Positions 34,472 to 63,496 are shown, counted from the stretch's first letter. The stretch: DNA of 64,000 bases from Aquirufa sp. (GCF_044377215.1 NZ_JBILJM010000010.1:13276-77275); one strand, 5' to 3'. A program made the numbers and translations. The notes: generated from the letters alone by a model not told the origin.

Positions 34472-37396
34472 CTATTTCACTAAAATCACACGCCGATTAA
34501 TCACCCGTTTTTCCGTTCTAAGCTCAATGAAATACGAACCAACTGCTTGTTCGCTTAGGTCCAACATATAATCTAGTTGGCCTTGAACAGGTATCGTTTC
34601 CGGACGTAACATAACTTTCCCCTGCATATCCAACACACGCAGCATCACACTTCGTTCATCGCTCGCTAAGCTAGCCTGTACACGCAGCCGACCGGTAGTT
34701 GGATTTGGACTAAGCGTAACGCCCGCCCCTAACGCACTCGGCTCATTACTTAGAATAATAATCGTAATCGCATTCGACTCACCCGTCGCACAAACGGCAT
34801 TCACCTGCGCTTTTACCGTGTACACTCCCGGCTCAGTGGTGGTCAAGGTAGATGAACTTTGGCCTGGAATCACGTTTCCATTTCGAAGCCAAATGAAGGT
34901 TACCCCCGGATATTCAGAAGTAACGGCAAGAACTTGCTCCGACTGCTTAAATAAAAATGGCACATTAAAGGCACATTTTTGAACTTCAGAACAACCATTG
35001 GCATCTACTTTAGCCCCCGCAGCTGTGCCAAGACATTTATCTATGGAATCATCTACGCCGTCTTTATCTAAATCAACAGGTATAATTGGTTCTTGAATTT
35101 TCAAATTATCGACAGACCATCCCCAGCCATGCGCACCCACGTCCGCATGCAAACGGAACCGAATAAGCACTTGATCACCCGATTTAAACTTGCCAGAGGA
35201 TAGTAAGTTGATTTCACGATTTCGTATCAGTGCGGCTGTTGGCGTTGCTGTTGAATTACCCTCATTATCTACCGCACTATTCCAGGCATTTAACCAAATA
35301 GAATTAGCATTCGAATCCCATCCATTGGTAAAATTAGACCACGTCAATCCGCCATCATTTGACCCTTGAACGATCACATAATCGAAGAAGCTACGGTTAA
35401 TTGTTCCATCGGAATTCAAAAACGCTTCACCAGCTTCACCGGGTTCCACTAACACGATTTCATCAAAACTCATAATGGATTTAACCGCATTCAGCTTAAT
35501 CGGTTTCAATAAAACGGCATCTGAATTCGTGAATCTATCTGTTCCATTTCCTCCATCATACGATTCTTCCGACCCATCGGCATATGGATGAGCGGTTTGC
35601 AAAGCAGAAGTAGTAAACCCTGCTGCCTTCCCAATAGCCATTCCCTTCAAATAAAATTCGGGCAAATTGGTATCAAAAGTTTGCAAGTACGTGGTCTCAA
35701 CGGGCAAAATACCCAATACTTTGACATCATAAAACCCGCTGCTCGGACTTGTAACCGTATTTAAAGCCTTGGCCGCATCTTGAACAACAACCCGATATTT
35801 TAAAACATCGCCGGGTTTAATTTCGCCACTGGTAAAATTAAAGGAATTTGAAAAGGTAGTTGACGTACCAGCAACCAATTGAAAATCTTTACGCTTCAGC
35901 GGCCCATTATTGATCGCATATTCCATATAAACCGCACTCAAGCCGATATTATCGGATGCCAAAAGCGTAGTCAGTGGAATCGTAGTCTGTGAAGAAAAAA
36001 TGTAGTTCAGTCGGTTTGCATATACCATTCTAGGTTTCACCGTATCTACACCAATATTAAACTCGAAAAAACTGCCAATTTTTGTGTTTGCAATGACCGG
36101 GGCCTCAGCAGGCGCTGTGATCTTTTTCCCCGACGGCTCATTAGCCATCCAATAATACCGCACATTCCGATCTCCAGAAGCCGGAGGCAATTTATAGGTA
36201 TAGGTATTTCCAGTTCGCGTCAATGGCATCGATGTGGCCGATAAAATACTTTTGTTTACGGAGAGCATTAATTTGACAGAATTTTCGGCCAATAAAGTGT
36301 CCGAATAAACAGTGGCAGAAATGGAGATATCTGAAGTTGTATTTTCCGAATCAGGTAAATCTGTGGCGATGATATTGGTCGAATACCAACCAAAATCAGC
36401 GAAAGCGGATGTTACAATGGGTCCTACTTGATGCGTAATCTCACCGCGTGCAATTTGAGGTGTCATAAGTGAGTTTGGATCACCTACCTGGTACGTGGCT
36501 TGATCAACGTGGTACACACTTGAACCTGGCGAATACGTTCGTGGAGAATATAAATTCGCAACGATACCCCCGTTATTTTGAAGAATTTTATGGGATGATA
36601 GTTGGAGATTTGTGGACGTAATCGCCGTCTTCAATTCAAGGGATGGATTGGATATTTTGGTGGTATCCGTAACGGAAATACCTGTTTCTGTCTTAATATA
36701 CTGATCAAAAATTCCCGGAAGACCATAACTTCCCTCACTCTGATCATCACTCAATCCGAGCTGTCCGATAAATCCGAGACCATGCCCAAACTCATGCAAA
36801 ACCACCGAAAAAAGGTCAATTTGATTAATAGCAGGTACCCCTTCTGTATTAATATACCAATCTGAAAAATCAGAATTAAACGTCGCGAAAACATCTGGAT
36901 CTGTTCCATTTAAGTTACGATGTGACATCTTCTCAGCTAATGCGATGGGATACCATGTATTTAGCCGATTACTACCAGCAAAATTTCGTACCACGGTGGA
37001 AGCACCAGCGCTGCCTAAAACACCAGTAGCAAGTGGGCGCCAACGGACAAAAATTTGAATAGGCACGTCCGAGATAAGCGTGTTCGCCCATACGCCTGCC
37101 GCTTTTTCAAAAACTGCCTTTACATTAGCTGGCGGTGGCGTTTCATAAGACACAATTACCTGTGTCGAACTTTGAGAGCCTTGTGTAGAAAACGTAGCCA
37201 TTCCAGACCGATTCTTTGACTCTTCCAAAATTCGCTTGGAATAACCATCTGGTAATTCACGATGAATTCCCGACTTTTCAGGCGTATATTCCTCGACTTG
37301 TTGGCCCGGCTTAAACTCAATAGATAAGCTCTTTTGACCCATAACAGATCCAGCCAAACAACAAAACCCAATCAAAAAGCAGTAAAATCTGTTCAT
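34472..37396 (-). CDS. T9SS-secreted multidomain protein with zinc metalloprotease-like domain
   Basis: Signal peptide; LHEFGHGLGF (HExxH); DLDKDGVDDSIDKC Ca-binding repeat; C-terminal PNPTTG...GSYFIEL sorting domain. Confidence 0.82.
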   Translation of the reverse strand: MNRFYCFLIGFCCLAGSVMGQKSLSIEFKPGQQVEEYTPEKSGIHRELPDGYSKRILEESKNRSGMATFSTQGSQSSTQVIVSYETPPPANVKAVFEKAAGVWANTLISDVPIQIFVRWRPLATGVLGSAGASTVVRNFAGSNRLNTWYPIALAEKMSHRNLNGTDPDVFATFNSDFSDWYINTEGVPAINQIDLFSVVLHEFGHGLGFIGQLGLSDDQSEGSYGLPGIFDQYIKTETGISVTDTTKISNPSLELKTAITSTNLQLSSHKILQNNGGIVANLYSPRTYSPGSSVYHVDQATYQVGDPNSLMTPQIARGEITHQVGPIVTSAFADFGWYSTNIIATDLPDSENTTSDISISATVYSDTLLAENSVKLMLSVNKSILSATSMPLTRTGNTYTYKLPPASGDRNVRYYWMANEPSGKKITAPAEAPVIANTKIGSFFEFNIGVDTVKPRMVYANRLNYIFSSQTTIPLTTLLASDNIGLSAVYMEYAINNGPLKRKDFQLVAGTSTTFSNSFNFTSGEIKPGDVLKYRVVVQDAAKALNTVTSPSSGFYDVKVLGILPVETTYLQTFDTNLPEFYLKGMAIGKAAGFTTSALQTAHPYADGSEESYDGGNGTDRFTNSDAVLLKPIKLNAVKSIMSFDEIVLVEPGEAGEAFLNSDGTINRSFFDYVIVQGSNDGGLTWSNFTNGWDSNANSIWLNAWNSAVDNEGNSTATPTAALIRNREINLLSSGKFKSGDQVLIRFRLHADVGAHGWGWSVDNLKIQEPIIPVDLDKDGVDDSIDKCLGTAAGAKVDANGCSEVQKCAFNVPFLFKQSEQVLAVTSEYPGVTFIWLRNGNVIPGQSSSTLTTTEPGVYTVKAQVNAVCATGESNAITIIILSNEPSALGAGVTLSPNPTTGRLRVQASLASDERSVMLRVLDMQGKVMLRPETIPVQGQLDYMLDLSEQAVGSYFIELRTEKRVINRRVILVK

Positions 37397-43053: not shown

Positions 43054-43767
43054 CTACGGTTTCAGACGATATAAATACGGAGCTTTGTGAGCGCCTCCGG
43101 TGAATTTCTTTTCAATCCGCAGGAGAATATCTAAACTTAACATCTTACGCTGAAAATTAGTCCGCACAATTTTTTTGTCCAAAATCGTCTCATACACCGC
43201 TTGAATTTCCGACATTGTAAAGGTATCCCCCAATAATTCGAAAGCAATTAATTTTTCATCCAAGGACTGCCTCATTGCTTCTAAAGCCTTATTCACAATC
43301 TTATTATGATCTAAAAATAGATGAGGTAGGGCTGCAATATCAACCCAATCTGCGGCATCTGAAATATCACCAGGGTTAACCACCACCTTGGAATAATCAA
43401 CCAAGGCATAATAACCAATGGTTATGTAACGCTTTGACATCCAAGATAAATCATCATCGGGGGATCCCATCGCCGTAGTAACGCTGCGATGCTCCTCCGC
43501 AGCCCGATCATTCCGCTCTAAATCGCCAAAGGTGTAAAATTGCTCTAAGTATATATCTGTCAATCCTGTACGTTCATACAATACCCGCTCAGCCGCCTGA
43601 TCAACATTTTCTTCTACACCCACAAATCCACCAGCCAAAGACCAGACATGCGTATTGTGAAATTTCAGCAACAATACTTTCAACTGATTTTCATGGAAAC
43701 CAAAAATCACACAGTCAACGGAAATTCCTGGCAACCAAAGTTCTGTTTGTTTAAATCTACTTAACAT
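43054..43767 (-). CDS. NrtR-family regulator (degenerate NUDIX sensor plus winged helix; Bacteroides AraR/XylR-like)
   Basis: SVDCVIFGF, LAGGFV..EE...AAERVLYERTGL, LEQFYTFG and RTNFQRKML...GGAHKAPYLY. Confidence 0.88.
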   Translation of the reverse strand: MLSRFKQTELWLPGISVDCVIFGFHENQLKVLLLKFHNTHVWSLAGGFVGVEENVDQAAERVLYERTGLTDIYLEQFYTFGDLERNDRAAEEHRSVTTAMGSPDDDLSWMSKRYITIGYYALVDYSKVVVNPGDISDAADWVDIAALPHLFLDHNKIVNKALEAMRQSLDEKLIAFELLGDTFTMSEIQAVYETILDKKIVRTNFQRKMLSLDILLRIEKKFTGGAHKAPYLYRLKP

Positions 43768-44018
43768 AAGTTTGAATTAATGAGCAAATTTAATTCGCAA
43801 AAATAACATATCTATCTCAATCAAATTAAACCTGTCCTTACAAAAAATCGGACCTCAATGACCCCTCTGGCAAGAAAAATGGTGAATGCAAATCAATATA
43901 AAATGCACCATTCGCCTGCAACAGGGCATTCATTGCTCTTTGTTTATCAATCAAAGCCGTTCGAGCTGAACTAGGCCTTAGAGCAGCAATAACTAATTTT
44001 GCGCCCGGCACTTGCTTC
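43730..44018. repeat. Left copy of a ~290 bp degenerate direct repeat (GDSL 3' end plus NrtR 5' end)
   Basis: Manual alignment to 63459-63750: about 242 matches in 292 columns with 3 single-base gaps. Confidence 0.92.
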
Positions 44019-44167
44019 CTCAAATAATTAAAAACTTCATACCTATAATCGCCATGGCCACTAACTAAATCCGCTGTTGTATCGAAGGCTAAGGCACCAA
44101 TAGGTTTATTCAATAATGTTCCACTCATTACTAGCGATGCATCTTGGATAAAAGCACTTCTGTTCAT
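43838..44167 (-). pseudogene. Chimeric junction ORF: N-terminus of an exported beta-propeller-like protein fused in frame to a frameshifted GDSL C-terminal remnant
   Basis: Second half KQVPGAKLV...HSPFFLPEGSL aligns with the 63486 protein; first half MNRSAFI...GHGDYRY is unrelated to it. Confidence 0.75.
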
Positions 44168-45531
44168 AACACATTATTTTTTACTAAGTTGTAGTTACCA
44201 CCATTATCGATTTTCACTTTAGGATATTTTCTTTTACAGTTTTCCACCCCAATAGACGTTACCTTACTACTCCAACAATAAATATTTTTCATTGAACCCA
44301 TTTCGCACAATTGCATTAAACCTGCATCATCAATGTTAGTTCCAATGATGTTTAGGTAGTGTAATTTGCTCATTTTTTTAAGGTCATTAACTGCACTATT
44401 AGAGGCACGAGTATTAGCGAGATTAAGTTTTAAAACGTTTTTACATTGAACTATAAACTTAAAAGCCTGATCATTAATTTGAGTATTTGCTAAATTTAAC
44501 CAAGCAATGTTATCTTCAATATCTTGTAAAATAGTGAGCTGCTGATTTGAAAGACCGGGTAATCCTACAGCATTTACATCCAAATAAGGACTTCCTTTTG
44601 AGATCGTGTTTACTTCCCAAAGCTTTTCCTTTAGTTTTATAATAACCAAAGAATCTGCTTTTTTTATCGATTTTAAACCTAAACTTGGTTCGGCGCTCTC
44701 AGTTGATCCAGCCAGAAATGCACGAACAGTGTCATTTTTAAATACCTCACTAATGCTTGTTTTTTCTGATGCACCCGTATTAATCCACCAATTTAAAAGT
44801 GCTATTTCATTGCTCGTGAGCTGCTTCTTTCCTTTAGGGGGCATTCGTTTTTTATCATCCAAATCAAGTAAAGTTCTCTTTACCAATTCACTATGTAAAG
44901 CGTCACCAGGTAATATTGCTGGACCAGTTTTCCCCCCTTTAAGTAAACTAGCAAAAGTTTGCATTTTAAGGTTCCCTTTTGTTTTATTTGGATTGTGGCA
45001 ACTGTAGCATTTTTCACTTAAAATGGGTGTAATGAGTTTTTCGTAAACAGTACCATTTGTGGTACTAGTTACAGGAACAAATGCAACCTGGCTAGTATTT
45101 TTGTCAGTACCCTTTGAGTTATCTATCGATATAAAATCAACCCCGTGTGTAAGGCTACCGCCATAATGACCAGCCAATGCTAAAAACAATAGCATAGAAC
45201 AATAAAGCAAATTTGATATTAGCTTAAATTTTGAAAAGCCCGAGCCTTTAGATTTCCAAGCCCACAAGGTAAGCGCTAAAAAACTAAGAATAATACCTGT
45301 CCACTTATGCTTATTTAGCAAATCTATATCGTACTCGGAAGACAGTGAAAGAAACCAACCTAAAATGGCCGCCGCAACTGACGAGACAGCTCCAATTAAT
45401 AATACTAATTGTATTTGTACTGGCGAGGTTCTTTTGGGAAATAGATATTCTAGTATAGCAGCCAATGCGAGAATACCAATTGGAAGATGAACCATCAAAG
45501 GATGAAAACGCCCAAAAAAATCTAAACTCAT
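44164..45531 (-). CDS. DUF2231-like membrane domain plus planctomycete-type cytochrome c (CYSCH) plus leucine-rich repeats
   Basis: GRFHPLMVHLPIG, four TM helices ending GHYGGSLTHG, CYSCH, RMPP and LxxLNLANT repeats. Confidence 0.8.
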   Translation of the reverse strand: MSLDFFGRFHPLMVHLPIGILALAAILEYLFPKRTSPVQIQLVLLIGAVSSVAAAILGWFLSLSSEYDIDLLNKHKWTGIILSFLALTLWAWKSKGSGFSKFKLISNLLYCSMLLFLALAGHYGGSLTHGVDFISIDNSKGTDKNTSQVAFVPVTSTTNGTVYEKLITPILSEKCYSCHNPNKTKGNLKMQTFASLLKGGKTGPAILPGDALHSELVKRTLLDLDDKKRMPPKGKKQLTSNEIALLNWWINTGASEKTSISEVFKNDTVRAFLAGSTESAEPSLGLKSIKKADSLVIIKLKEKLWEVNTISKGSPYLDVNAVGLPGLSNQQLTILQDIEDNIAWLNLANTQINDQAFKFIVQCKNVLKLNLANTRASNSAVNDLKKMSKLHYLNIIGTNIDDAGLMQLCEMGSMKNIYCWSSKVTSIGVENCKRKYPKVKIDNGGNYNLVKNNVL

Positions 45532-47003
45532 GCTAATATATCTTTAATTACCTGACCATGAACATCTGTCAAACGATACCTCCGACCCTGACTTTTATAT
45601 ACAAATTTTTCGTGGTCAATTCCTAGCATGTGCAGTAATGTAGCCTGAAAATCATGAACGTGTACTTTATCTCGGATCACGTTGTGCGCAAAATCGTCAG
45701 TTTGACCATACACTAGACCCGGTTTTACGCCACCGCCAGCCATCCAAGTTGTATAAGCTCCAGGGTGATGGTCACGACCAAAACCTTCTGGCGTTAGTTT
45801 TCCCTGTGAAAAGCTTGTCCGACCAAATTCTCCTCCCCATATCACCAAGGTGTCATCTAATAATCCCCTTTGCTTTAAATCTTTTACCAAAGCCGCCGAG
45901 GCTTGGTCAGTTTGTTTGGTAGCCTTTCGAATACCTGAAGATATTTTACCGTGATGATCCCAGCCCAAATGATAAAGTTGCACAAATCGTACATCCTTTT
46001 CTATAAGTCTTCTTGCTGTAATGCAATTGTGTGCAAATGTGCCCGGCTTGGTCACGTCGGGGCCATACATGTCTAATATATGCTTGGGCTCTTTTGAAAG
46101 ATCAAGGATATCTGGTACGGCCATTTGCATTTTATAGGCCATTTCAGCTTGGGTAATTTGACTTTCAATTTCAGGATCTTGCCATTTTTCATTTTGGACA
46201 ATATTGAATTGCTTTATAAAATCCAAAGCCCTTCTCCTATCTATTCGTTCTACCCCATCGGGTGTTTTTAAAAAAAGCACAGGGTCTTTAACGGATAAAA
46301 ATTGAACTCCCTGGTGGTAAGACGGCAAAAAACCACTACTCCAAGCTGCATTACTTATAGGCTGGTCGCCACCGCCTTTTGATAACATTACAATAAAGGC
46401 AGGTAAATTTTGATTCATACTACCCAAGCCATAACTTAACCAAGAGCCTATGCAAGGTCTACCGCTCAATTGGTTACCCGTTTGTGTAAAAATCATGGCA
46501 GGTTCATGATTTATTTGATCGGTAACCATACTTTTAATAATACATAATTCATCAACTATTGAAGCTGTGTGAGGAATTAGTTCACTAAGATATGTACTGT
46601 TAGAACCATGCTGTGAAAAATTACAAGCTGGCCTGGCTAGCGGAAATGAATACTGGTTACTTGTCATACCCGATACCCTATTGGAACCCATTACCGAAGG
46701 GGGTATTTCTTTACCATGCATCTTGTAGAGCATGGGTTTATAGTCAAAAAGTTCCATTTGAGATGGACCTCCACTTTGAAACAAATAAATAACTCTTTTG
46801 GCAGTAGGCATAAAATGAGGACTTCCAAGTGGCTGGTTTTCTCGCTCTATTAGTTCAGAAATTTCATTGTTTTTTTGAACAACTTCGGACTTTGAATTGC
46901 ATCCAATTAAACCTTGCAATGCAATTCCACCTAGGCCTATTGCAGAGCCTAATAAAAAATCTCTCCTTTTGGCATTATATTGAATTTTATATAAATCGTC
47001 CAT
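45528..47003 (-). CDS. DUF1501 domain protein, Tat lipoprotein
   Basis: KRRDFL twin-Arg, LIGC lipobox; AKRVIYLFQSGGPSQ, GWDHH, GEFGRT, RDHH and VHDFQATLLH motifs. Confidence 0.9.
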   Translation of the reverse strand: MDDLYKIQYNAKRRDFLLGSAIGLGGIALQGLIGCNSKSEVVQKNNEISELIERENQPLGSPHFMPTAKRVIYLFQSGGPSQMELFDYKPMLYKMHGKEIPPSVMGSNRVSGMTSNQYSFPLARPACNFSQHGSNSTYLSELIPHTASIVDELCIIKSMVTDQINHEPAMIFTQTGNQLSGRPCIGSWLSYGLGSMNQNLPAFIVMLSKGGGDQPISNAAWSSGFLPSYHQGVQFLSVKDPVLFLKTPDGVERIDRRRALDFIKQFNIVQNEKWQDPEIESQITQAEMAYKMQMAVPDILDLSKEPKHILDMYGPDVTKPGTFAHNCITARRLIEKDVRFVQLYHLGWDHHGKISSGIRKATKQTDQASAALVKDLKQRGLLDDTLVIWGGEFGRTSFSQGKLTPEGFGRDHHPGAYTTWMAGGGVKPGLVYGQTDDFAHNVIRDKVHVHDFQATLLHMLGIDHEKFVYKSQGRRYRLTDVHGQVIKDILA

Positions 47004-47012
47004 ATTTTTCGC

Positions 47013-50000
47013 CTATTTTCTTGTAAAAAACTCATCAGTATTCATGAGCGTGGCAGCTACACTTGCAAAAGAAGCAAGAGCTACTTTATCTGATGTTGGC
47101 TTTTTATCATTACCAATAGAAAGATACCTAGCCGCTTTGGTGGGTTGCTTTCCAAAATTCTCCTTTTCTGCTTTATATAATTTATTCAGCAGTATAATTT
47201 CTTTAGTTTGAGGTTTTCGTCCTGTAACCAGCCTAAAACAATAATTCAATTGATTTTCTATAGAATTGCCACCGTTGCGAATCGAATGCCAAGCCAAATT
47301 ACGTGCTGCCTCAATAATTTGTGGATCATTAAGCATTGCAAGCGATTGCATCGGAGAACTAGATACTTGGCGTTTTACAATACAAGTTGATCTGTCTGGC
47401 GCATCAAATATCTGTAGAAACGGCACAACGCTTGTTCTTTTTCTTATCGTATAAATACTTTTACGGTATGTATCATCGCCGGTAGAGGTATTGTAAACAT
47501 ATTTCCAAGACTTATCAGTTAGTTCATCCCATAAGCCAGTAGGTTGGTATGGATATACGCTAGGACCACCAATTTTAGATGTAAGTAATTCACTAATTTT
47601 AAGCGCGTTGTCTCGAATCATTTCAGCAGGATATCTATATCTTGGACTACGTGTTAGTAATACATTAGTAGGATCCATTTTAATTGAATTGCTACTTGCT
47701 TCCGCTGACTGCTGATAGGTAGAACTCATGTAAATATATTTAAAGAGTTCTTTTGTATTCCACTTGTGTTCTCTGTACCAAACCGCTAGATGATCTAAAA
47801 GTTCTGGATGAGAGGGTATATCTCCTTGACTACCAAAATTATCTGAACTTGTAACAATTCCTGTTCCAAACAGCAATTGCCATATTCTATTTACGGCCAC
47901 TCTAGCGGTAAGGGGGTTTTGGTCTAAAAATAGCCAATCAGCTAAGCCCAGTCTATTTTTGGGTAAGTCTTTAGGAAACGGTAATATGGCAGCTGGAGTA
48001 GATGGGTAAACCCGTTCTCCAAAACTATCATATATACCTCGTTTTAAAACATACGTAGGCCTAGGTTTAGGCAAATCACCCATTACCATTACTTCCTTGG
48101 TAGAATCTAGCAGCATACTTAGGTTTTTGCGGGCAAGTAATAAGGGGGGGGCTGGATATTTTTTTAGCTTTTTAACAATAGGAAACGGTAATCTTTTAAA
48201 TAAAAAACTAGCTTCGGCGTGAGACAATTGATCATTAAAAAGTTGAAATTCATCCACTTCGCCGCCTGGCATTGATCGGTCAAGAATACGTACCCCGAAA
48301 GTTATTCCGTTATACAAAGATGTTTTATGAATATTGGGATATGACCTTATATGCTTTACCAAATGATCATATTCTACAATTGGGTCTAATTTTTTGCCGT
48401 CTAAATATAGCGAAACACCTTTAGCTTTACTGCTGCCATCATACGTACCTACCAAATGGTACCATTTATTTGTTTGTAGTTTTTCTTTACTCATTACACT
48501 TATAGCGTCATGAGGAAAAGCATGAGAAATTCTAAAATTTAATTGATTATTTTTTAAAATCAGGTCATAACCTTGATAACCGTACCTTTCCACATCGGTA
48601 TTATGAAAAACTGTAGCTAATGGATAATTATTGGGGACTTTAAGCCAAATAGAAAAGGAAAAAGGTTCGTAACGCTCAAAATAACCTACTTTATACGGAG
48701 GTAATGATACTTGAGTTTCATCATTATACTTCAAAGAAAGCCCACTTACACCTGTAGATGTTTCCACTTTTTTAGCTAAAGCACTTAAAGAGTTATCTAG
48801 CTCGTTAATGTAAATTGTTTTTTTAGGCCCTTTAGTTATTAGCTTATCAAAATTTAACTTCGCTACCAATTTATTACTTAAACCTAAAGCCAATTCTTTT
48901 TGGTTTGGGGACTTTACTTCAAGTTTATTATTATTTTGTTTTTTCTCTAAATTCGCTATATATGATTTAAGCTGGCTTATTTTTTGCTCATTCACTTTTG
49001 TTGGCAACAAGAGCGTAGGGCCGGCAACCATATCCTCATTTCCATAATTTGGACTTCCGTTTTCGAACGTACTATTAAAGAAAGCGTACAAGGAGTAAAA
49101 GTCTTTTTGACTTATTGGATCAAATTTATGATCGTGGCATTTGGCACAGCCTACACTCATAGCCATTAGGCCAGTGCCTAAGGTGCTGGTTCTATCTACC
49201 ACATTTTCAACCCGAAACTCTTCCTCAATAATCCCTGCTTCGGTATTTTGTTTATGATTTCGATTAAATCCAGTAGCAAGTATTTTTTCTTTAGAGGTAT
49301 TTGGCAGCAAATCTCCAGCTAGTTGCCATGTAATAAAATCCTTGAAACTTAGGTTTTTATTATAAGCTTCAATTACCCAGTCACGCCACGGACTCATATC
49401 ATAATGCTTATCATCGAGATACCCAAAGCTATCTGCAAATCTTGCTAAGTCTAACCAATAAATGGCCATTCGCTCGCCATAATCAGGGGAGGCCAAAAAA
49501 CGGTCAACCAGTTTTTCATAAGCGTTTGCGCTTGGGTCTTTCAAAAAAGCATCTACTTCTGCAATACTAGGAGCAAAACCTCTGATGTCAAAACTGAGCC
49601 TTCGAATCAGTGTTTCTTTGTCGGCTCGTGGGCTTGGATTTAATTGGGCGGCTTCAATTTTGGATAAAATAAACTTATCGATGTCGTTTTTTACCCAACT
49701 TGTATTTTTAGTCTTGGGAGCTGTAGTTTTTTTAGGCGCAACATAAGCCCAATGTGGTTTGTATTTCGCACCTTGTTTTATCCATTTAACTAATACTGCT
49801 TTTTCATAAGTCGATAATGTTAAATGCGAGGACGGTTCTGGCATTAGATAATCTGGATCCTCACTTAGAATTCGGTGTACAAAATCACTGCTGGAGATAT
49901 CTCCTGGCACGATTGCCATCATACCAGATTCTGTTTTTTTTGAATATGCTGCTTCAGCTATATCAAGTCTTAAATCTGCTTTTTGCTTTTTAGCATCATT

Positions 50001-50165
50001 CCCATGACAACTAAAACACTTATCAGAAAGGATTTTTTTTACATGGATATTATAATCAACTTCCTCATTAATCCTGTCCATAGCTAAGTTTACCTCCTCA
50101 GGAACTTCAACTTCTTTGCACCCTAAGACAAAAAGCAACAAAGACAAGAATAAAACCTTTTTCAT
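47013..50165 (-). CDS. PSD1/planctomycete cytochrome c protein: PSCyt1 + DUF1549 + LamG-like + DUF1553; lipoprotein
   Basis: VLGC lipobox, CFSCH, CAKCHDHKFDPI, WYHLVGTYDG LamG motif, NPLTARVAVNRIW and PSHPELLD.LA. Confidence 0.9.
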   Translation of the reverse strand: MKKVLFLSLLLFVLGCKEVEVPEEVNLAMDRINEEVDYNIHVKKILSDKCFSCHGNDAKKQKADLRLDIAEAAYSKKTESGMMAIVPGDISSSDFVHRILSEDPDYLMPEPSSHLTLSTYEKAVLVKWIKQGAKYKPHWAYVAPKKTTAPKTKNTSWVKNDIDKFILSKIEAAQLNPSPRADKETLIRRLSFDIRGFAPSIAEVDAFLKDPSANAYEKLVDRFLASPDYGERMAIYWLDLARFADSFGYLDDKHYDMSPWRDWVIEAYNKNLSFKDFITWQLAGDLLPNTSKEKILATGFNRNHKQNTEAGIIEEEFRVENVVDRTSTLGTGLMAMSVGCAKCHDHKFDPISQKDFYSLYAFFNSTFENGSPNYGNEDMVAGPTLLLPTKVNEQKISQLKSYIANLEKKQNNNKLEVKSPNQKELALGLSNKLVAKLNFDKLITKGPKKTIYINELDNSLSALAKKVETSTGVSGLSLKYNDETQVSLPPYKVGYFERYEPFSFSIWLKVPNNYPLATVFHNTDVERYGYQGYDLILKNNQLNFRISHAFPHDAISVMSKEKLQTNKWYHLVGTYDGSSKAKGVSLYLDGKKLDPIVEYDHLVKHIRSYPNIHKTSLYNGITFGVRILDRSMPGGEVDEFQLFNDQLSHAEASFLFKRLPFPIVKKLKKYPAPPLLLARKNLSMLLDSTKEVMVMGDLPKPRPTYVLKRGIYDSFGERVYPSTPAAILPFPKDLPKNRLGLADWLFLDQNPLTARVAVNRIWQLLFGTGIVTSSDNFGSQGDIPSHPELLDHLAVWYREHKWNTKELFKYIYMSSTYQQSAEASSNSIKMDPTNVLLTRSPRYRYPAEMIRDNALKISELLTSKIGGPSVYPYQPTGLWDELTDKSWKYVYNTSTGDDTYRKSIYTIRKRTSVVPFLQIFDAPDRSTCIVKRQVSSSPMQSLAMLNDPQIIEAARNLAWHSIRNGGNSIENQLNYCFRLVTGRKPQTKEIILLNKLYKAEKENFGKQPTKAARYLSIGNDKKPTSDKVALASFASVAATLMNTDEFFTRK

Positions 50166-50335
50166 GTACTAAATATAAGACACATTAATATTTTAATTTG
50201 TTGATTTTAATGTTTTTTTAAATTAATTAATTTTCTAGTCAATACATTCTTTCGCAAAATGTACAAATCGTAAAATTTCATTGAATCTTTAAACGCTAGC
50301 TATTTTTTATACTTAATTTTTGAAAATAATCTTAA

Positions 50336-50370
50336 AGAAAAAATAGCCCCATCCATAAGACGGGGCTATT
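50336..50370 (-). terminator. Intrinsic terminator after susD
   Basis: AATAGCCCC/GGGGCTATT stem, with T-run on the minus strand. Confidence 0.7.
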
Positions 50371-50392
50371 AGTTAACCCTAAACTAATTTAA

Positions 50393-52228
50393 TTATTCTA
50401 CTATTTTATCTAATGCAGGCTTATTTGATTCACTACCTGCGTATCCTAAATTTTGATTGATCTGTCCCAAGCTATTTGCCAAAATTGCAGCTCTAGGAAT
50501 CGGCCATAAAACATGGTAAGGACTCATCGTATATGCATCATTACGAATATTTCTAACCTTATTATAGAAATTATTTTTCTCAATTACTCTATCATAAAAG
50601 AAATTAGCGGTTGAAAAATTTTGTAATGAATACGTTTTGCCCCTATAACTTCTACCTGACTTCGCCATTTGATAGGCAATACGAGTTAATTCAGTTTTAC
50701 GTGGCTCTTCATAATACAATTCTCTTCCTCTCTCATCTAAAATGGTGCCAATATCAATTACTTTATTTGCAGGATATGGCTTACAGTTTGCCCTAGTTCT
50801 AACCGCATTAAGATCAGCAATAGCCAAAGCATTATTGCCCTTAAACCAATGAGCTTCCGCTCTTAAAAGGTACGTTTCTGCTAAGCGAAAAACATACCAG
50901 TCTGAGTTTCCACCTTGAAATGGAATTCGGATTTGGTCTTCAACATAAAGTTTGTAATGTGGCCAATTAAACCAATTTCTGATGGTATCGCCATTGCTTA
51001 TCAATAATTTGCCAGCGGCGTCTCTTAGTTGAAGAGGCTTTCCATAAAAAGGCGATATCCCTTTTATAGCTGTATTATTATACACCAAATCTTCCATTCT
51101 CATCCAGTTTCCAGATTTTGTATCATGGCGATGATCATTTTCGTCATCCCAAACGTCATATTGTGTATAATTCGTTGCACGGCATCGACCAATTCCACGA
51201 CCATATTTTGTGCTTAAATCAAATTCCACTTGTCCAGGTACCAAACCAGACCTGCCATCAGGAGTCAAAATAGCACTGTTTGAGAAAAATGGTACAGCTT
51301 GACGCATACTTGTAGTTCCAGAGGCAGAAGCACTCGCTAATCCAAAACGATCTGTTACCGAAAACAAAACTTCGGTATTTGCAGCAGCAAATTTATTTGC
51401 TGGACGATGTAGGTCCCAAGTAACATTTTTTGTGCTATTACCTGCATCTATTCCAAATCTCCCCGTTACTAATCTATAAGTACCACTGTTAATTACTTGG
51501 TCAGCACTAGCTATAGCTTCATCATAAAGACCTAAAGCCAAGTTGACCTTTGTAAGCAAATGGCCAATTGAAGCTTTATTAACATCTCCTTTGTCACCAA
51601 TAAATGGTACATTTTTAAATGCAAAATCGAGATCGGCTTTAATTTTAGTTAAAATAGCCTCTCTTTTTACAGTTTGAAAATCAAGTTTAGGACTTGAAAT
51701 TTCTTTAAAAGAAGTAGGCACATCCCCAAATTGATTAACCAATCGATAATAATGATAAGCACGGTAAAAATAGGCCTTTCCAAGAAGCTGGTTTTTAACG
51801 TCGTCTTTTATCGAAGTAACGGTAGGAATTTTATCAATTATTGTATTCGCCAATCGAATACCTAACCAATGTCTTTCCCAATACCAACCAATTCGATTAA
51901 AATCAGCACTGTTAAGGTTTGCGTCTGGTGTAATCAATACATTCAAATCTACAGCTGGACCAAATTTATCGGTGGTACCCTCAACTGCCATTTCTGAAAA
52001 CAGCAACTCTGTAATGATAGGGTGACCATCACCATACCATTCATCTTTTAGATTTGCTGAACAGGAAGCCAACGCTGATTTAAAACCAGCTTCACTTGTA
52101 AAAGTATTTTCTGGAGTAAATAAGGATAGAGGCTGCGGAGTAAGCCAATTGTCCGTACAACTTGTAAACACTGCCAGCACGATAGCAGCGACTACGGTTA
52201 TTTTTCTAATTTTAAATATATTTTTCAT
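50393..52228 (-). CDS. RagB/SusD family outer-membrane glycan-binding lipoprotein
   Basis: FTSC lipobox, GKAYFYRAYHYY..V..FGDVP, FRLAETYLLRAEA, ILDERGRELYYE and WPIP...QNLGY. Confidence 0.93.
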   Translation of the reverse strand: MKNIFKIRKITVVAAIVLAVFTSCTDNWLTPQPLSLFTPENTFTSEAGFKSALASCSANLKDEWYGDGHPIITELLFSEMAVEGTTDKFGPAVDLNVLITPDANLNSADFNRIGWYWERHWLGIRLANTIIDKIPTVTSIKDDVKNQLLGKAYFYRAYHYYRLVNQFGDVPTSFKEISSPKLDFQTVKREAILTKIKADLDFAFKNVPFIGDKGDVNKASIGHLLTKVNLALGLYDEAIASADQVINSGTYRLVTGRFGIDAGNSTKNVTWDLHRPANKFAAANTEVLFSVTDRFGLASASASGTTSMRQAVPFFSNSAILTPDGRSGLVPGQVEFDLSTKYGRGIGRCRATNYTQYDVWDDENDHRHDTKSGNWMRMEDLVYNNTAIKGISPFYGKPLQLRDAAGKLLISNGDTIRNWFNWPHYKLYVEDQIRIPFQGGNSDWYVFRLAETYLLRAEAHWFKGNNALAIADLNAVRTRANCKPYPANKVIDIGTILDERGRELYYEEPRKTELTRIAYQMAKSGRSYRGKTYSLQNFSTANFFYDRVIEKNNFYNKVRNIRNDAYTMSPYHVLWPIPRAAILANSLGQINQNLGYAGSESNKPALDKIVE

Positions 52229-52239
52229 AAAAAATCAAT

Positions 52240-55200
52240 TTAGAATGTAATGTTTAGACCAAGTGTTGAAGTTTGTGGCATTAAATTTTGATAAAATGCA
52301 TTATTAGTTTCAGTATTTGCTCTTGATTCAGGGTCAAAATAAGACCATGGTGTAAATACTGCTAAGTTGGATACATTCACATAAAATTTCATGCTTTCAA
52401 ATTTGACCTTATTTGTCACTGTTTTTGGAAGGGTATATGCCAAACTAATGTTATTTAATCTAACAAAAGAAGATTTACGCCAAACCGTATAGGCTACTGC
52501 CCCACCTGCTGCTGACATCATCTTTGCATAGTCATTAATTGGGTTTTCAGGTGTCCAATATGGTCTTTTGTAAAACTGCGAACGATCATAAAACAAATCC
52601 ACATTCTTAGCTTCGTTAAAGGCTGTGTATTGTCCAATTCGGCCATATAAAGAGAATGAAACGTCAAAATTTTTGTACAGATTAAACTCATTTCTTAGGT
52701 TAAATGAAAACAGAGGATTTTGATGACCTAAAAATTGTCTATCTTCTATCGTATACTTACCATCATTGTTTAAATCCTCAAGTTTAAAATCACCAGGAGT
52801 AAACCCATACTTTTTGGCTAAATCTCTCTCAGCTTCCTGCCATACGCCTAATACTTTGTAATCCCATATTTGATTGATAGGCTTACCAATAAACCATCCG
52901 TTTGCTCTATCATCTTGATCCACCATGGTTACGTTTCCACTTGCATCTTTAACAGGTACCTCACCATACAGTTTCAAGATTTTGTTATCATTGGTCCAGA
53001 AACTGACATTTGAACGCCAAACAAAGTTGTCGTTTTTATAGTTTTCAGAATTAATCGCTACTTCAAGTCCATTGTTACCAACAGAGCCTAAATTTGAAAT
53101 AACACTAGCGAATCCGGTAACATTAGGAAGGGAACGGAATAACAACAAATCATTTGTTTCTCTGATGTAGTAATCCACCGAGCCATTTATCTTACTATTA
53201 AATAATCCGAAATCTAAACCAAAATTGTATGAGCTATTTTTCTCCCATTTCAACGAGGGGTTAGGCATATTAGTGGTCCTAACAGTACCCGTATTAAATG
53301 TCGCTCCCCCAGGAGAAGTGTAGCTATAAACACCAGTTGAAAGAGCAGATAGAGATGCAAATCTATTGGCAGATCCGTCGGCATTTAATATCTCACGGTT
53401 TCCATTGACACCATAAGAAACTCTAAGTTTTCCGTAATCTAAATATTTCTGAATCCCACTAAAGAATTTCTCATCCGTAAATTGCCATCCTAAGGCTAAA
53501 GATGGAAACATTGCCCTTTGATTGGCAGCACCAAAGCCAGAGTATCCATCTCTACGCATGGTCGCTGTCAGGAAATATCTTGAATTAAAATTATAATTAA
53601 TTCTTCCCATTAAAGCATCCCCCGTAAAATAGGTATCGTTGCTTGTTATGGATGGAAACAATGTTGCAGCACCCACATTATGGTAAAGCAAGTTATCCCC
53701 TGGTGAATAGTTTTCCGCATTGATTACATTCTGCCAAATTTGAGCTTTTTCAGCATTCACCAAAAATGTTGCATCAAAATTGTGCTTTCCAAATGATTTA
53801 TTCCATCTTAAAATATTATCAATCTGCCATTGAAATGAATTACTATTTTCTCTTCTTGATATTCCTCGGCGATTACTTATTCCGGGCTTATTTGCCGAAA
53901 TATGATCTAAATAATTTACAAACTCGAATCTTGGAGTGTAATTAACCTGGTAAGAAAAACCATAACCTAAATCTCCTTTTATGAAAATAGAGCTAAATAA
54001 GTTATTGACTCTTCTATCTCTAGAATTAAAAACTTGGTCAAGGAATGGATTCGTGTTATTACCTACGTCATCATTAGTACTTTGACGTAATGTAACACCA
54101 TCATCTTGATATAATTGACCAAACGGAGTTGTACGAATAGCATTTCCTAAATCAATTGGAATACTACTTTCATCACGATTTGCAAATTGTAGGTTTAAGC
54201 CTACAGTAAGAAATTTGGCAATTTTATTTTCTAGGTTTACTCTTGCTCTTACAGTTTTAAAAACATCCCCCACCGAGAGTCCTTCATTAGACAAATAACC
54301 CAAAGACATGTAGTAGTTGGTAGTAGGCGTACTACCAGAAATACCAACTGTATGATCTTGTTGAACAGCATTGTCATTTACAAGAATGTCTTCCCAGTTA
54401 GTTGTTCTACCAGCTTTATAATTTGCTATTTCGACAGGGAAAAGCTTTATTCTATTGAGCCATACATCCACTGGATCTCCTTTGTCACTTCCTAACCATT
54501 GCGTTATACTTACATCTGATGGTAAATTGCGAGGGTCATAAAAAGTATGTTTTTTAGCAGGATCGTGTCCATTCATGCTCCAAAGGACATCACCACGCCA
54601 TTTCAAAAACTCTTCTGGATTTAAAATATGGTTGAATTTTCCAACCTTATTCATGGCAAAATTGGAATTAAGTGTGATTTGGGGTTTACCAGATTTACCT
54701 CTTTTCGTGGTTACCAAAATTACCCCATTTGCAGATCTTGCACCAAACACTGAGGCTGAACTTGCATCTTTCAAAACGTCTACCGTTTCGATATCATTGG
54801 GATTGATGTCGTTTAAAGAACCCGGATAGATAACTCCATCTACCACGATCAATGGGGAAGTAGCGGCAGTTAATGACGCACGACCCCTAATAAGAAAACT
54901 ACCACCACCTCTTGGAGAGGCGTTATTAGACACGTCTAAGCCTGGTGTATTACCACGTAACATATCTTGTACTGTCCTTGGGTTTTCGTTTTCCATTTTA
55001 GCGGCTTTTATTTGACCCACAGCACCAGTTAAATCACTTTTTTTCATGGTACCATAGCCTACAACTACCACTTCATCGAGATTCTGACTGTCCTCAGCGA
55101 GGCTAATGTTGATTTGGGTTCTGGTTCCAATTACTTCCTCCCTCCTTAAATATCCGATCGAGGAGAATACAAGTACCCCATTTTTTGAATTTACATTTAG

Positions 55201-55380
55201 GGAATAATTACCGTTCCCATCAGTAAATGTACCTTGCGTAGTTCCTTTTAATGATACGCTAACACCTGGTAAGCCGCCTCCTAAGGGGTCTGACACTTTA
55301 CCTGTCAATTGCCCAGTTTGAGCAACTACTATCTGCAAAGACAAAAACAATGCAGACAACAAAAGATAAATTTTCTTCAT
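52240..55380 (-). CDS. SusC/RagA family TonB-dependent transporter
   Basis: LDEVVVVGYG, PLIVVDG, DIETVDVLKDAS..SVFGARSANGVILVTTKRG; C-terminal GLNITF. Confidence 0.95.
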   Translation of the reverse strand: MKKIYLLLSALFLSLQIVVAQTGQLTGKVSDPLGGGLPGVSVSLKGTTQGTFTDGNGNYSLNVNSKNGVLVFSSIGYLRREEVIGTRTQINISLAEDSQNLDEVVVVGYGTMKKSDLTGAVGQIKAAKMENENPRTVQDMLRGNTPGLDVSNNASPRGGGSFLIRGRASLTAATSPLIVVDGVIYPGSLNDINPNDIETVDVLKDASSASVFGARSANGVILVTTKRGKSGKPQITLNSNFAMNKVGKFNHILNPEEFLKWRGDVLWSMNGHDPAKKHTFYDPRNLPSDVSITQWLGSDKGDPVDVWLNRIKLFPVEIANYKAGRTTNWEDILVNDNAVQQDHTVGISGSTPTTNYYMSLGYLSNEGLSVGDVFKTVRARVNLENKIAKFLTVGLNLQFANRDESSIPIDLGNAIRTTPFGQLYQDDGVTLRQSTNDDVGNNTNPFLDQVFNSRDRRVNNLFSSIFIKGDLGYGFSYQVNYTPRFEFVNYLDHISANKPGISNRRGISRRENSNSFQWQIDNILRWNKSFGKHNFDATFLVNAEKAQIWQNVINAENYSPGDNLLYHNVGAATLFPSITSNDTYFTGDALMGRINYNFNSRYFLTATMRRDGYSGFGAANQRAMFPSLALGWQFTDEKFFSGIQKYLDYGKLRVSYGVNGNREILNADGSANRFASLSALSTGVYSYTSPGGATFNTGTVRTTNMPNPSLKWEKNSSYNFGLDFGLFNSKINGSVDYYIRETNDLLLFRSLPNVTGFASVISNLGSVGNNGLEVAINSENYKNDNFVWRSNVSFWTNDNKILKLYGEVPVKDASGNVTMVDQDDRANGWFIGKPINQIWDYKVLGVWQEAERDLAKKYGFTPGDFKLEDLNNDGKYTIEDRQFLGHQNPLFSFNLRNEFNLYKNFDVSFSLYGRIGQYTAFNEAKNVDLFYDRSQFYKRPYWTPENPINDYAKMMSAAGGAVAYTVWRKSSFVRLNNISLAYTLPKTVTNKVKFESMKFYVNVSNLAVFTPWSYFDPESRANTETNNAFYQNLMPQTSTLGLNITF

Positions 55381-55545: not shown

Positions 55546-56925
55546 CTATTTATTTTTGAATTGATTCGTACCATATGGCACTCTTTGAGATCTTCCCAAC
55601 ATAGTATTTGCTGTTTCGTTATTAGTAAATCTTTCAGTCTTGGGATCCCATAATAATTTACCGGGTAGTTTCATTGCAATATGACTAATCAAGCAAATTG
55701 AGCAAACACGGTGTGCAACTTCTACTGGAGATAATACAGGAGTCTTATTTAGAATTCCTTCTAGCCAGTTTAAATGGTGTTCCTCACTTACCTGAAGTTT
55801 TACTTCGCTATCTTTTATTTGAGAAGTCAATATTTTGGGGTTACTAGCATCTAAAGCTTTAGCACTTTTAGCTGCTGCAATAGGATCAGATGCGGATGCG
55901 ACATAACTACCTCTAGAAACAAAAATCCAACCCTCCGAGCCTTCAAAACGAATTCCATTAGGATAGCCTCCACTTGTATACATCGATATACCGTTTGCAT
56001 AATCAGATTTTACCATAAAATCACCATGAACATTCCATAAGCCAGATTTTGGAAACTCAGCTATTGCTTCTACAGATATTGGACCAGTGTGTTCGGTATC
56101 CATGCCCCATGCTGCAATATCATAGTGATGTTGTCCCCAACCGGTAATCATACCAGACCCAAATTGCTCAAGTCTTAACCATCCCGGTCGACCATAACCT
56201 ACTTGAGGATGAACCCCTATTTCAGTGTAGGGCACAAAAGGCGTAGAGCCTAACCATGCATCATAATTCAAATTTTTGGGAATGGGCATTTCGGGTGCAG
56301 ATGGACCTGATGGATCACCTGGCAGTCCTATTTTTATGGTGTGTAGCTTTCCAATTCTACCATTTCGGACTAACTCTGCAGCTATCCTAAATTGCGATGT
56401 AGAACGCTGTTGGGTTCCTACCTGAAAAACCACCCCTTTTTTGTTTACTATTTGACAAAGCTGTCTGCCTTCCGATATGGTCAAAGAAGTAGGTTTTTGA
56501 AGATATATGTGCTTACCTGCTAATGCGGCTTCCATGGCAGGCTGAGCATGCCAATGGTCTGGCGTACTAATCATGACCGCATCAATATCTTTGTTTAGGA
56601 GCATTTCACGGTAATCGTCGTACATCTTAGTATCCATGTATTTATTATTGCCTGTCTTTTGCCCATAATATCCATCAATGAGGCTTTTGGCATCCTCTAC
56701 TCTATTTCTATCAATATCACAAGCTGCTATGATTCTCGCTGAATCATGTTTAAATGTTTCCGCTAAGTCATGTTCACGTGCTATTCTACCACAGCCGATT
56801 TGACCAATATTTATTTTATTCGAAGGCGCGTTTTTCCCAAATACGGAAGAGGGTACAATAGTTGGTAAACCAATTGTCGCTACTGCTCCAGTGAGAGTTT
56901 GTTCAATAAATTTCCTACGTTTCAT
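55546..56925 (-). CDS. Gfo/Idh/MocA NAD-dependent oxidoreductase, Tat-exported
   Basis: MKRRKF leader, IGQIGCG, ISTPDHWH, YLQKP, QVGTQQRS and GWGQHHYD. Confidence 0.9.
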   Translation of the reverse strand: MKRRKFIEQTLTGAVATIGLPTIVPSSVFGKNAPSNKINIGQIGCGRIAREHDLAETFKHDSARIIAACDIDRNRVEDAKSLIDGYYGQKTGNNKYMDTKMYDDYREMLLNKDIDAVMISTPDHWHAQPAMEAALAGKHIYLQKPTSLTISEGRQLCQIVNKKGVVFQVGTQQRSTSQFRIAAELVRNGRIGKLHTIKIGLPGDPSGPSAPEMPIPKNLNYDAWLGSTPFVPYTEIGVHPQVGYGRPGWLRLEQFGSGMITGWGQHHYDIAAWGMDTEHTGPISVEAIAEFPKSGLWNVHGDFMVKSDYANGISMYTSGGYPNGIRFEGSEGWIFVSRGSYVASASDPIAAAKSAKALDASNPKILTSQIKDSEVKLQVSEEHHLNWLEGILNKTPVLSPVEVAHRVCSICLISHIAMKLPGKLLWDPKTERFTNNETANTMLGRSQRVPYGTNQFKNK

Positions 56926-59546: not shown

Positions 59547-59580
59547 ATTATTTTTTCAAAAATTTTAACTTGGTCCTGTT

Positions 59581-60471: not shown

Positions 60472-60473
60472 GA

Positions 60474-63457: not shown

Positions 63458-63496
63458 AGGCAACCTAAGTTATGTTTGTTTAAATCTACTTAACAT
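63458..63496 (-). pseudogene. 13-codon stub of the NrtR gene with a nonsense codon
   Basis: ATGTTAAGTAGATTTAAACAAACATAACTTAGGTTGCCT = MLSRFKQT*LRLP versus intact MLSRFKQTELWLP at 43767. Confidence 0.85.

Follow-up and report, generated by a model that had tools for sequence, protein, structure and literature searches.

The 64,000-nucleotide stretch of Aquirufa sp. DNA analyzed here (GCF_044377215.1, NZ_JBILJM010000010.1:13276-77275; hereafter the window) carries on its minus strand three adjacent genes, designated G1, G2, and G3, that form one module. They encode exported proteins with parts resembling c-type heme carriers and a sulfatase-fold metalloprotein, and they lie next to a polysaccharide utilization locus (PUL) containing SusC and SusD. 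The genes of the module are as follows.

47013-50165, minus strand: G1, a 1050-aa lipoprotein with PSCyt1, PSCyt2/DUF1549, LamG jelly-roll, and PSD1/DUF1553 domains (Pfam, alignment, and AlphaFold2 model)
45528-47003, minus strand: G2, a 491-aa DUF1501 lipoprotein exported by twin-arginine translocation (Tat) (Pfam, invariant residues, and hhalign)
44164-45531, minus strand: G3, a 455-aa membrane protein with DUF2231, PSCyt1, and leucine-rich repeat (LRR) domains (Pfam, alignment, and hydropathy)

The coordinates of the minus-strand open reading frames (ORFs) bore out the original prediction, made from the sequence alone, that the three genes are tightly coupled. G1 and G2 are separated by a gap of 9 bp, G2 and G3 share an ATGA overlap, and a second ATGA overlap joins the G3 stop to a 109-aa ORF (43838-44167). 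All three genes are under purifying selection, with ratios of nonsynonymous to synonymous substitution (dN/dS) against two close relatives of 0.05 for G2, 0.10 for G1, and 0.19-0.23 for G3. Because the G1-G2-G3 arrangement is kept in dozens of species and its genes are under purifying selection, it is far beyond chance. NCBIfam holds no model for G1, G2, or G3.

G2 matched DUF1501 (PF07394) in Pfam with an E-value of 5.7e-149, and its N-terminus contains two export features.

46953-46970, minus strand: twin-arginine motif KRRDFL of G2 (aa 12-17; sequence and alignment)
46899-46901, minus strand: lipobox Cys35 of G2 (LIGC; sequence)

An alignment of 53 diverse members of the family (33-52% identical) showed that the Tat arginines R13 and R14 are invariant, together with G78, K89, P90, H166, W348, D349, H351, E392, G394, R395, G409, R410, and H412. 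The CxPxR motif was not found in G2. Comparison of G2 with sulfatases by hhalign gave a probability of 90% and an E-value of 1.5e-6 over approximately 280 columns, using a sulfatase profile of only five sulfatases from related loci. The stretch H166-E-P-A-M…T-G of G2 was aligned with C-x-P-S-R…[ST]-G, placing H166 at the position of the formylglycine Cys, and E392-F393 lay opposite the Asp-Asn/His metal ligands of sulfatases. The Arg of CxPSR had no counterpart in G2 in the alignment with these five sulfatases. The Lys and His residues of the sulfatase GKxH motif bind sulfate; their positions are occupied in G2 by A220 and S222, inside an xxWxSG stretch. In global mode, hhalign put the N-terminus of G2 onto signal peptides, and the placement of the GG of VIYLFQSGG at the sulfatase DD ligands is a manual guess.

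Weak Pfam matches pointed to the same fold, with Sulfatase found in 24 of the 53 DUF1501 members, Phosphodiest in 24, and DUF229 in 12. No solved structure related to G2 by sequence was detected in the PDB, and in a profile search of the PDB nothing emerged but local matches below the threshold, to sulfatases and LtaS near the metal-binding strand. By these data, G2 belongs to the alkaline-phosphatase superfamily and has a sulfatase fold. G2 shares with S1 sulfatases the profile similarity, the signature TG, and an acidic metal ligand after the central strand, whereas it differs from them in its invariant His in place of Cys/Ser, its export as a Tat lipoprotein, and its constant partner with heme motifs. 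To our knowledge, every characterized relative in the superfamily has Ser, Thr, or formylglycine as the nucleophile at the position of H166. Two known enzyme types were considered for G2 and rejected. A canonical formylglycine sulfatase (S1) is incompatible with the missing defining residues of CxPxR and GKxH. No lytic polysaccharide monooxygenase (LPMO) family matched G2 in Pfam, and an LPMO-type N-terminal histidine brace is not possible because mature G2 begins with the lipidated Cys35.

G1 begins with MKKVLFLSLLLFVLGC, a Sec signal with a lipobox (VLGC). Pfam assigned to it PSCyt1 (aa 50-109; E = 3e-14), PSCyt2/DUF1549 (aa 162-366; E = 7e-81), Laminin_G_3 (LamG, aa ~433-656; E = 2e-12), and PSD1/DUF1553 (aa 737-996; E = 2e-88), and two CxxCH motifs were located.

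50004-50018, minus strand: first heme-c motif of G1, CFSCH (aa 50-54), with M108-P109 as candidate distal ligand
49134-49148, minus strand: second motif of G1, CAKCH (aa 340-344), extended to CAKCHDHKxDP

CFSCH, CAKCH, M108-P109, and the extended CAKCHDHKxDP were invariant among 43 orthologues (55-86% identity), so that the marks of a class I c-type cytochrome, C50xxC53H54 and M108-P, are both present and invariant. The second CxxCH could be a further heme site or another metal site. The AlphaFold2 model of G1 had a mean predicted local distance difference test score (pLDDT) of 77.8 and a predicted template-modeling score (pTM) of 0.73. All Foldseek matches of this model in the PDB were jelly-rolls of ConA/LamG type, among them the Hc-N domains of clostridial toxins, and they reflect the common jelly-roll fold and no kinship with toxins. 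Sequence and profile searches against the PDB likewise found only LamG-type jelly-rolls, and by all these searches PSCyt2 and PSD1 had no solved relatives. A domain of carbohydrate-binding type is always present on G1: LamG here, CBM6 in Pedobacter roseus, and other carbohydrate-binding modules (CBMs) in bacteria of the Planctomycetes-Verrucomicrobia-Chlamydiae (PVC) group. In the P. roseus locus (L007, 4652-11395), where CBM6 replaces LamG, DUF1501 is also split into two ORFs, a gene with a weak match to xylose-isomerase-like TIM barrels lies between the module and G3, and an AraC regulator lies upstream.

G3 combines DUF2231 (aa 9-128), PSCyt1 with CYSCH (aa 175-179), and LRRs (aa ~287-453), the last matching LRR structures in a profile search of the PDB with an E-value of 1e-15. 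Its hydropathy profile showed three clear hydrophobic segments (aa 9-32, 36-64, and 102-122) and a weaker fourth at about aa 76-93. Among 40 homologues (33-83% identical), C175-x-x-C178-H179 and M230-P-P were invariant, again the CxxCH and distal Met of a class I c-type cytochrome, as were H10, H15, H75, H122, and H129. If the heme domain is periplasmic and aa ~76-93 form a fourth helix, helices 1, 3, and 4 would carry these five His residues at their periplasmic ends. Weak Pfam matches to Cytochrome_CBB3 were found in 35 of the 40 homologues, with Cytochrom_C and PccH also matching weakly; weak matches of cytochrome b561 type in 4 of the 40 are a lead only. The original description of the three products thus held in each case: G1 as a Sec lipoprotein with CFSCH, CAKCH, and a lectin-like domain, G2 as a Tat lipoprotein of DUF1501 with conserved His and Asp residues and without CxPxR, and G3 as a membrane-anchored CYSCH cytochrome with LRRs.

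Beyond G3 lie the remains of a fourth gene, G4, and one copy of a direct repeat whose other copy lies on the far side of the PUL.

43838-44167, minus strand: chimeric remnant of G4, 109 aa (tblastn and blastn)
43730-44018: left copy of a direct repeat of ~290 bp, 83% identical to the right copy (blastn)
63459-63750: right copy of the repeat, inside an intact GDSL-hydrolase gene (blastn)

Residues 1-45 of the remnant (44033-44167) correspond to the Tat signal end of a 350-aa NHL-propeller gene, with the RR of the signal changed to RS, and residues 46-109 are the 3' part of a GDSL/SGNH-hydrolase gene, 73% identical to 63579-63755. Of the six-bladed Tat propeller of ~350 aa, the window therefore retains 45 residues. 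G4 is intact in L001, L002, L010, and L012 of the related loci described below and shortened in L009. The G4 family resembles the core of peptidyl-alpha-hydroxyglycine lyase (PAL; 3fvz, E = 5.7e-5). The two repeat copies flank a low-GC (33-39%) segment of ~19.4 kb that holds the PUL and the module, and higher-GC housekeeping genes (YebC, AccD, and NIF3) lie to its left. In this lineage the PUL and the module thus constitute one bracketed, compositionally distinct segment, and the repeat around it looks like a scar of recombination or insertion.

The truncated G4, fused to foreign sequence and with its altered twin-arginine pair, and the shortened copy in L009 might be taken to mean that the module is decaying in this genome. 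We consider this highly improbable: G1-G3 are full length with all invariant residues kept, no frameshift or loss of constraint was seen in them, their dN/dS lies between 0.05 and 0.23, contigs from lake metatranscriptomes cover them, and a whole clade of Sediminibacterium-type loci is naturally without G4.

The original prediction regarded these genes as an undescribed system of families with no established function, and only the second part stands. A module in which DUF1501 proteins bearing Tat signals stand beside PSCyt1/PSCyt2/PSD1 proteins, some of them with Laminin_G_3, was reported by Kamneva et al. (2012; PMC3542564), together with a four-gene form including a PSCyt1/WD40 protein. These authors noted the module in "a few Bacteroidetes" only and suggested that it is targeted to the membrane and carries electrons to sugars or proteins. 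He et al. (2017; PMC5615132) tied PSCyt genes, which carry CBMs and neighbor sulfatases, to carbohydrate use and found them enriched in oxic-layer genomes beside two unknown families. The domain names go back to Studholme et al. (2004, as cited in PMC3542564 and PMC5615132). Full-text literature searches found no functional study of DUF1501, DUF1549, DUF1553, PSCyt, or DUF2231. The window contains the features of the published module, namely a DUF1501 protein with a Tat signal, an adjacent PSCyt1, PSCyt2, and PSD1 protein with Laminin_G_3, and conserved adjacency of the two. The G1-G3 module is the Bacteroidota form of this described, functionally uncharacterized module; the membrane partner G3, the frequent fourth gene, and the embedding in PULs are new here.

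The Bacteroidota form and the PVC form (Planctomycetes, Verrucomicrobia, and Lentisphaerae) have the same two core proteins with the same domain order, Tat-exported DUF1501, and strict adjacency, and the four-gene PVC form also includes a second PSCyt1 protein with a repeat domain. In contrast to the PVC form, the second PSCyt1 protein of the Bacteroidota form has a DUF2231 membrane anchor and LRRs instead of WD40, the frequent fourth gene encodes a PAL-like NHL propeller instead of a PPC-domain protein, and both exported partners are lipoproteins. Rhodopirellula baltica has ~41 copies of each domain, with a PSCyt2/PSD1 gene linked to a stress-induced extracytoplasmic function (ECF) sigma factor, whereas the Bacteroidota orthologue set is effectively single-locus and lies inside SusCD PULs.

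A genome scan with one genome per species yielded 515 stretches with this DUF1501 subfamily, of which the best 80 were analyzed (handles of the form L001). Close loci were defined by at least 70% identity and distant loci by 58-63%; the 31 close loci of the 10-kb counts are those with full flanks.

G1 directly upstream of G2: 57/57 close, 15/15 distant
G3 at most 1.7 kb downstream: 46/49 close, 1/12 distant
G4 at most 1.8 kb downstream: 18/49 close, 4/12 distant
SusC within 10 kb: 17/31 close, 2/9 distant
Gfo/Idh/MocA within 10 kb: 2/31 close, 2/9 distant
GH20 or Oxidoreduct_C within 10 kb: 0/31 close, 0/9 distant
DUF6807 within 10 kb: 0/31 close, 1/9 distant

The idea of one exported G1-G2-G3 module was thus upheld across genomes. 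The best 80 loci belonged to Spirosomataceae/Cytophagaceae, Chitinophagaceae, Sphingobacteriales, Cyclobacteriaceae, Catalimonadaceae, and Rhodothermales, and none of these 80 of 515 to Bacteroidales or Flavobacteriales. Cultured carriers include Pedobacter roseus, Terrimonas ginsenosidimutans, Paraflavitalea pollutisoli, Gynurincola endophyticus, and Tellurirhabdus rosea. The distant Cyclobacteriaceae and Catalimonadaceae contained tandem G1-G2 arrays without G3: L079 (1988-17398, Catalinimonas) and L084 (1-13225, a metagenome-assembled genome of Cyclobacteriaceae) each showed three G1-G2 pairs in tandem with no G3 nearby, a paralogue expansion resembling that of Planctomycetes. In L081 (3322-11276) and L082 (14663-19252), from Cyclobacteriaceae and Lunatimonas, CxPSR sulfatases lie directly beside G1-G2 pairs, which echoes the sulfatase-PSCyt neighborhood of Verrucomicrobia. 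In L004 and L005 (8928-11368), all that is left of G1 is a piece of 231 aa, and of G2 two pieces of ~70 aa each; next to these remains lie genes for GH127, LacI, Gfo/Idh/MocA, and a 3-keto-disaccharide hydrolase.

Three genomic contexts of the module were distinguished. In the window type, Gfo-SusC-SusD is followed by the module. In the rhamnose/fucose type (~13 loci), GH95-like and beta-helix genes lie upstream of the module, and in most loci an aldo-keto reductase gene overlaps G3 and precedes rhaM, a dehydratase of the mandelate racemase/muconate-lactonizing enzyme (MR/MLE) family, a transporter, PhyH, AraC, and SusCD. In the uronate type (~11 loci), a hybrid two-component system (HTCS) regulator lies directly upstream of G1-G2-G4-G3, with varying combinations of SusC-SusD, a heparinase II/III-like lyase, GH88, and a major facilitator superfamily (MFS) transporter downstream. 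The same orthologues are therefore embedded in at least three unrelated types of PULs. Across PUL contexts and bacterial classes, identity was 74-78% for G2, ~57-64% for G1, and ~39-43% for G3, and the near constancy of G2 suggested that its substrate is the same in every PUL type.

The near constancy of G2 across PUL types also speaks for a substrate that is not PUL-specific. A function unrelated to glycans, such as scavenging of organic phosphorus or sulfur, detoxification, or stress, with PULs nearby only because they are abundant, would moreover accommodate the 14 of 31 close loci without a detectable SusC within 10 kb and the link between a PSCyt2/PSD1 gene and an ECF stress sigma factor in R. 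baltica. We consider it quite unlikely, given that G1 always bears a carbohydrate-binding-type domain, that an HTCS regulator lies directly upstream in ~11 loci, and that the module is operon-like with sugar genes, G3 overlapping the aldo-keto reductase gene before rhaM or running into SusC without a terminator.

We propose, with confidence that is evenly balanced, that the module forms an enzyme complex in the periplasm, with hemes as its wiring to the membrane, and acts on a feature common to many glycans. G2, exported in folded form by Tat, would be the catalytic subunit, a sulfatase-fold metalloprotein with an invariant His in place of formylglycine. G1, always ahead of G2, would be its membrane-tethered periplasmic partner, with one certain domain of heme-c type and a second CxxCH site, holding an oligosaccharide through LamG and relaying electrons. 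G3 would sit in the inner membrane and couple the complex to the respiratory chain through its five His residues on the periplasmic face, its heme-c domain, and its LRR docking domain. Where G4 is intact, its PAL-like lyase propeller may process the product by splitting a hydroxylated intermediate. The target would be a substituent or end group found on many glycans and not glycans of N-acetylglucosamine (GlcNAc) specifically.

The main rival, which we regard as rather unlikely, is a plain esterase with non-catalytic hemes: G2 would be a purely hydrolytic phospho- or sulfo-esterase or a transferase that works without formylglycine, G1 a scaffold, and the hemes structural or regulatory, sensing redox state or O2. 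As far as we know, all characterized members of the superfamily are hydrolases, transferases, or mutases, and the weak Sulfatase and Phosphodiest matches among DUF1501 members are in line with such an activity. Sulfatases adjoin G1-G2 in L081 and L082 and neighbor PSCyt genes in Verrucomicrobia (PMC5615132). However, an invariant His stands at the position of the nucleophile, and G2 has lost the Arg, Lys, and His that bind sulfate. It would also be costly to maintain two separate heme-c domains, both invariant, together with a membrane partner rich in His if they had no part in catalysis, and Tat export suggests a cofactor assembled before export.

Several observations weigh against the heme-wired complex. 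We know of no redox enzyme in the alkaline-phosphatase superfamily, which gives a redox-active G2 a low prior. The AlphaFold2 model of G2 (24 sequences, 76-95% identical) had a pLDDT of 37 and was unusable for active-site geometry, and model confidence around the second CxxCH of G1 was only ~60. An intact G3 outlives decayed G1 and G2 in L004 and L005; this survival and the rarity of G3 near distant pairs (1/12) suggested that G3 may be a general hub instead of a dedicated subunit. SusC was within 10 kb in only 17/31 close loci, in genomes that are rich in PULs, and the metatranscriptome evidence is contig-level presence only, for which DNA carry-over is possible.

Within the proposed complex, redox coupling of the module, which the invariant heme-c motifs suggest, seems to us about as probable as its absence. 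More tentatively, we lean toward a flow of electrons into the enzyme, which would depend on O2 to remove or cleave a group oxidatively, because the module is distributed among aerobes and in oxic layers, its hydrolytic nucleophile is lost, and it has a lyase as partner. One specific form of it, unlikely in all its details, assumes that a new metal centre in G2 uses O2 and is fed by the c-hemes of G3 and G1, with G3 drawing electrons at the membrane surface. On a sugar substituent such as an amide-linked group or a lactyl or methyl ether, G2 would hydroxylate the carbon that adjoins the O or N; the group would then come free through the PAL-like G4 or by spontaneous collapse.

Two known systems provide parallels. 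In Cellvibrio japonicus, the c-type cytochrome and CBM proteins Cbp2D and Cbp2E reduce LPMOs (Branch et al., 2021; PMC8981238). There, and in the fungal pair of cellobiose dehydrogenase and LPMO, a heme domain fused to a carbohydrate-binding module feeds electrons to a non-hydrolytic glycan metalloenzyme, the logic proposed here for G1 and G2; the module has no sequence relationship with Cbp2D/LPMO and is probably periplasmic instead of extracellular, so that this is an analogy only. The peptide amidation system consists of cytochrome b561, peptidylglycine alpha-hydroxylating monooxygenase (PHM), and PAL. The module, with its PAL-like G4, would follow this three-part logic if a His-rich membrane protein donated electrons, a metalloenzyme used O2, and a lyase cleaved the product once hydroxylated. 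In contrast to that system, G2 is unrelated to PHM, the likeness between DUF2231 and b561 is weak, and G4 is optional and broken in the window.

The PUL beside the module and the spacer between them contain the following features.

50166-50333, minus strand: AT-rich spacer with a conserved block at 50272-50325 (five relatives aligned)
50334-50370, minus strand: intrinsic-terminator-like hairpin with a 13-bp stem, 6 G-C pairs, and a T-run, directly after the SusD stop
50393-52228, minus strand: SusD (Pfam)
52240-55380, minus strand: SusC (Pfam)
55546-56925, minus strand: Gfo/Idh/MocA protein with a Tat signal (Pfam and N-terminus)
56922-59546, minus strand: GH20 (Pfam)
59581-60471, minus strand: DUF6807 protein with a Sec signal (Pfam and N-terminus)
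60474-61826, minus strand: Oxidoreduct_C protein with a Sec signal (Pfam and N-terminus)
62166-63320, plus strand: LacI-family regulator, divergent from the PUL (Pfam)

The original prediction placed the module directly downstream of SusC/D. The two are indeed adjacent on the same strand, but a 227-bp spacer with the terminator-like hairpin separates SusD from G1. This hairpin was the strongest of its kind in the 19.5-kb region, and a hairpin with a T-run occupied the same position in L001, L009, L010, and L012, with stems that differ, in L009 entirely. A conserved intrinsic terminator thus appears to part SusD from the module in the clade of the window. The same detector found no terminator between G3 and SusC in 5/5 uronate-type loci and none between SusD and G1 in L088. 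Just behind the SusD terminator, the conserved block of the spacer reads on the minus strand TTTCAAAAAT…AAAATAG..AG.GTT…ATGAAAT.TT, and the spacer with this block may serve the module as promoter or operator. A generic sigma-70 promoter scan gave no enrichment over shuffled sequence and was not used, and a search of 43-64 kb with Rfam returned a single chance match, on the terminator hairpin.

The lake metatranscriptome contigs cover the PUL as well as G1-G3. None crosses 50307-50392, and one spans 50075-50306, ending exactly at 50306, an end that is no proof of a start site and leaves read-through possible. Synonymous divergence (dS) against L009 and L012 was 0.42-0.61 for G1-G3, lower than the 0.79-2.0 of SusC/SusD, which suggested partly separate histories of the two units within the clade, involving recombination. 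We propose that in this lineage the module is transcribed separately, as a unit that follows the SusCD operon.

The tie to the GH20/oxidoreductase PUL that the original prediction had drawn fails beyond the nearest relatives, as judged from the co-occurrence counts, and the terminator and the difference in dS within the clade do not support it either. The module does recur inside glycan loci, but GH20, DUF6807, and Oxidoreduct_C were absent within 10 kb from all 31 close loci with full flanks and Gfo/Idh/MocA was present in two. A role as dedicated partner of the GH20/Gfo PUL was therefore rejected, since the two are not co-inherited.

A related possibility is that the hemes of G1 and G3 serve as an electron sink, re-oxidizing the exported Gfo/Idh/MocA and Oxidoreduct_C proteins of the PUL and passing the electrons to the respiratory chain. 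Periplasmic sugar dehydrogenases that give electrons to cytochrome c are well known, and the neighboring PUL likewise encodes exported oxidoreductases, with a Tat signal on Gfo/Idh/MocA and Sec signals on Oxidoreduct_C and DUF6807. Gfo/Idh/MocA also flanks the module in L009, L012, and L088 and is near it in L004 and L006. We nevertheless judge an electron sink very unlikely: in the scan as a whole Gfo/Idh/MocA was close in only 2/31 and 2/9 loci, GH20/Oxidoreduct_C in 0/31 and 0/9, and DUF6807 in 0/31 and 1/9; a terminator lies between the PUL and the module here; and the most conserved gene, G2, would be left without a role. In contrast to the BT_2158 route, the Gfo/Idh/MocA protein of the window scored 144.8 bits against the NCBIfam model of BT_2158 (glycoside 3-dehydrogenase), far below the cut-off of 750, and inheritance of the cytochrome module is not linked to that of these enzymes.

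Apart from the module, GH20 and the three exported putative redox proteins of the PUL (55546-61826) may form an oxidative route of their own for GlcNAc-type glycosides. The LacI ORF has an N-terminal extension of ~50 aa with CxxC…CxxC before the helix-turn-helix, which is an added zinc ribbon or else reflects a start called too far upstream. Farther away, 34472-37396 on the minus strand encodes a 974-aa protein whose sole recognizable feature is a type IX secretion system (T9SS) C-terminal sorting domain.

DUF1501 comprises 24,509 clusters at 50% identity, and DUF1501, PSCyt, and PSD1 jointly rank with the largest exported families of no known function in aerobic polysaccharide degraders such as Planctomycetes, Verrucomicrobia, and Bacteroidota. 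Planctomycetes have paralogues by the dozens, which makes genetics hard, whereas soil and freshwater Bacteroidota have a single, highly conserved set of orthologues (G1-G2-G3, in some cases plus G4) in recognizable PULs with known regulator types (LacI, HTCS, and AraC). The Bacteroidota variant thus gives tractable access to a very large family, and the substitution of His for formylglycine amounts to a specific hypothesis open to mutational testing. Should the heme-wired complex prove to work oxidatively, the module would represent a new enzyme class in the glycan turnover of oxic waters and soils. A G2 that uses O2 would be the first redox enzyme among alkaline-phosphatase superfamily members and, generic across PULs, would match glycoside hydrolases and sulfatases on the oxidative side.

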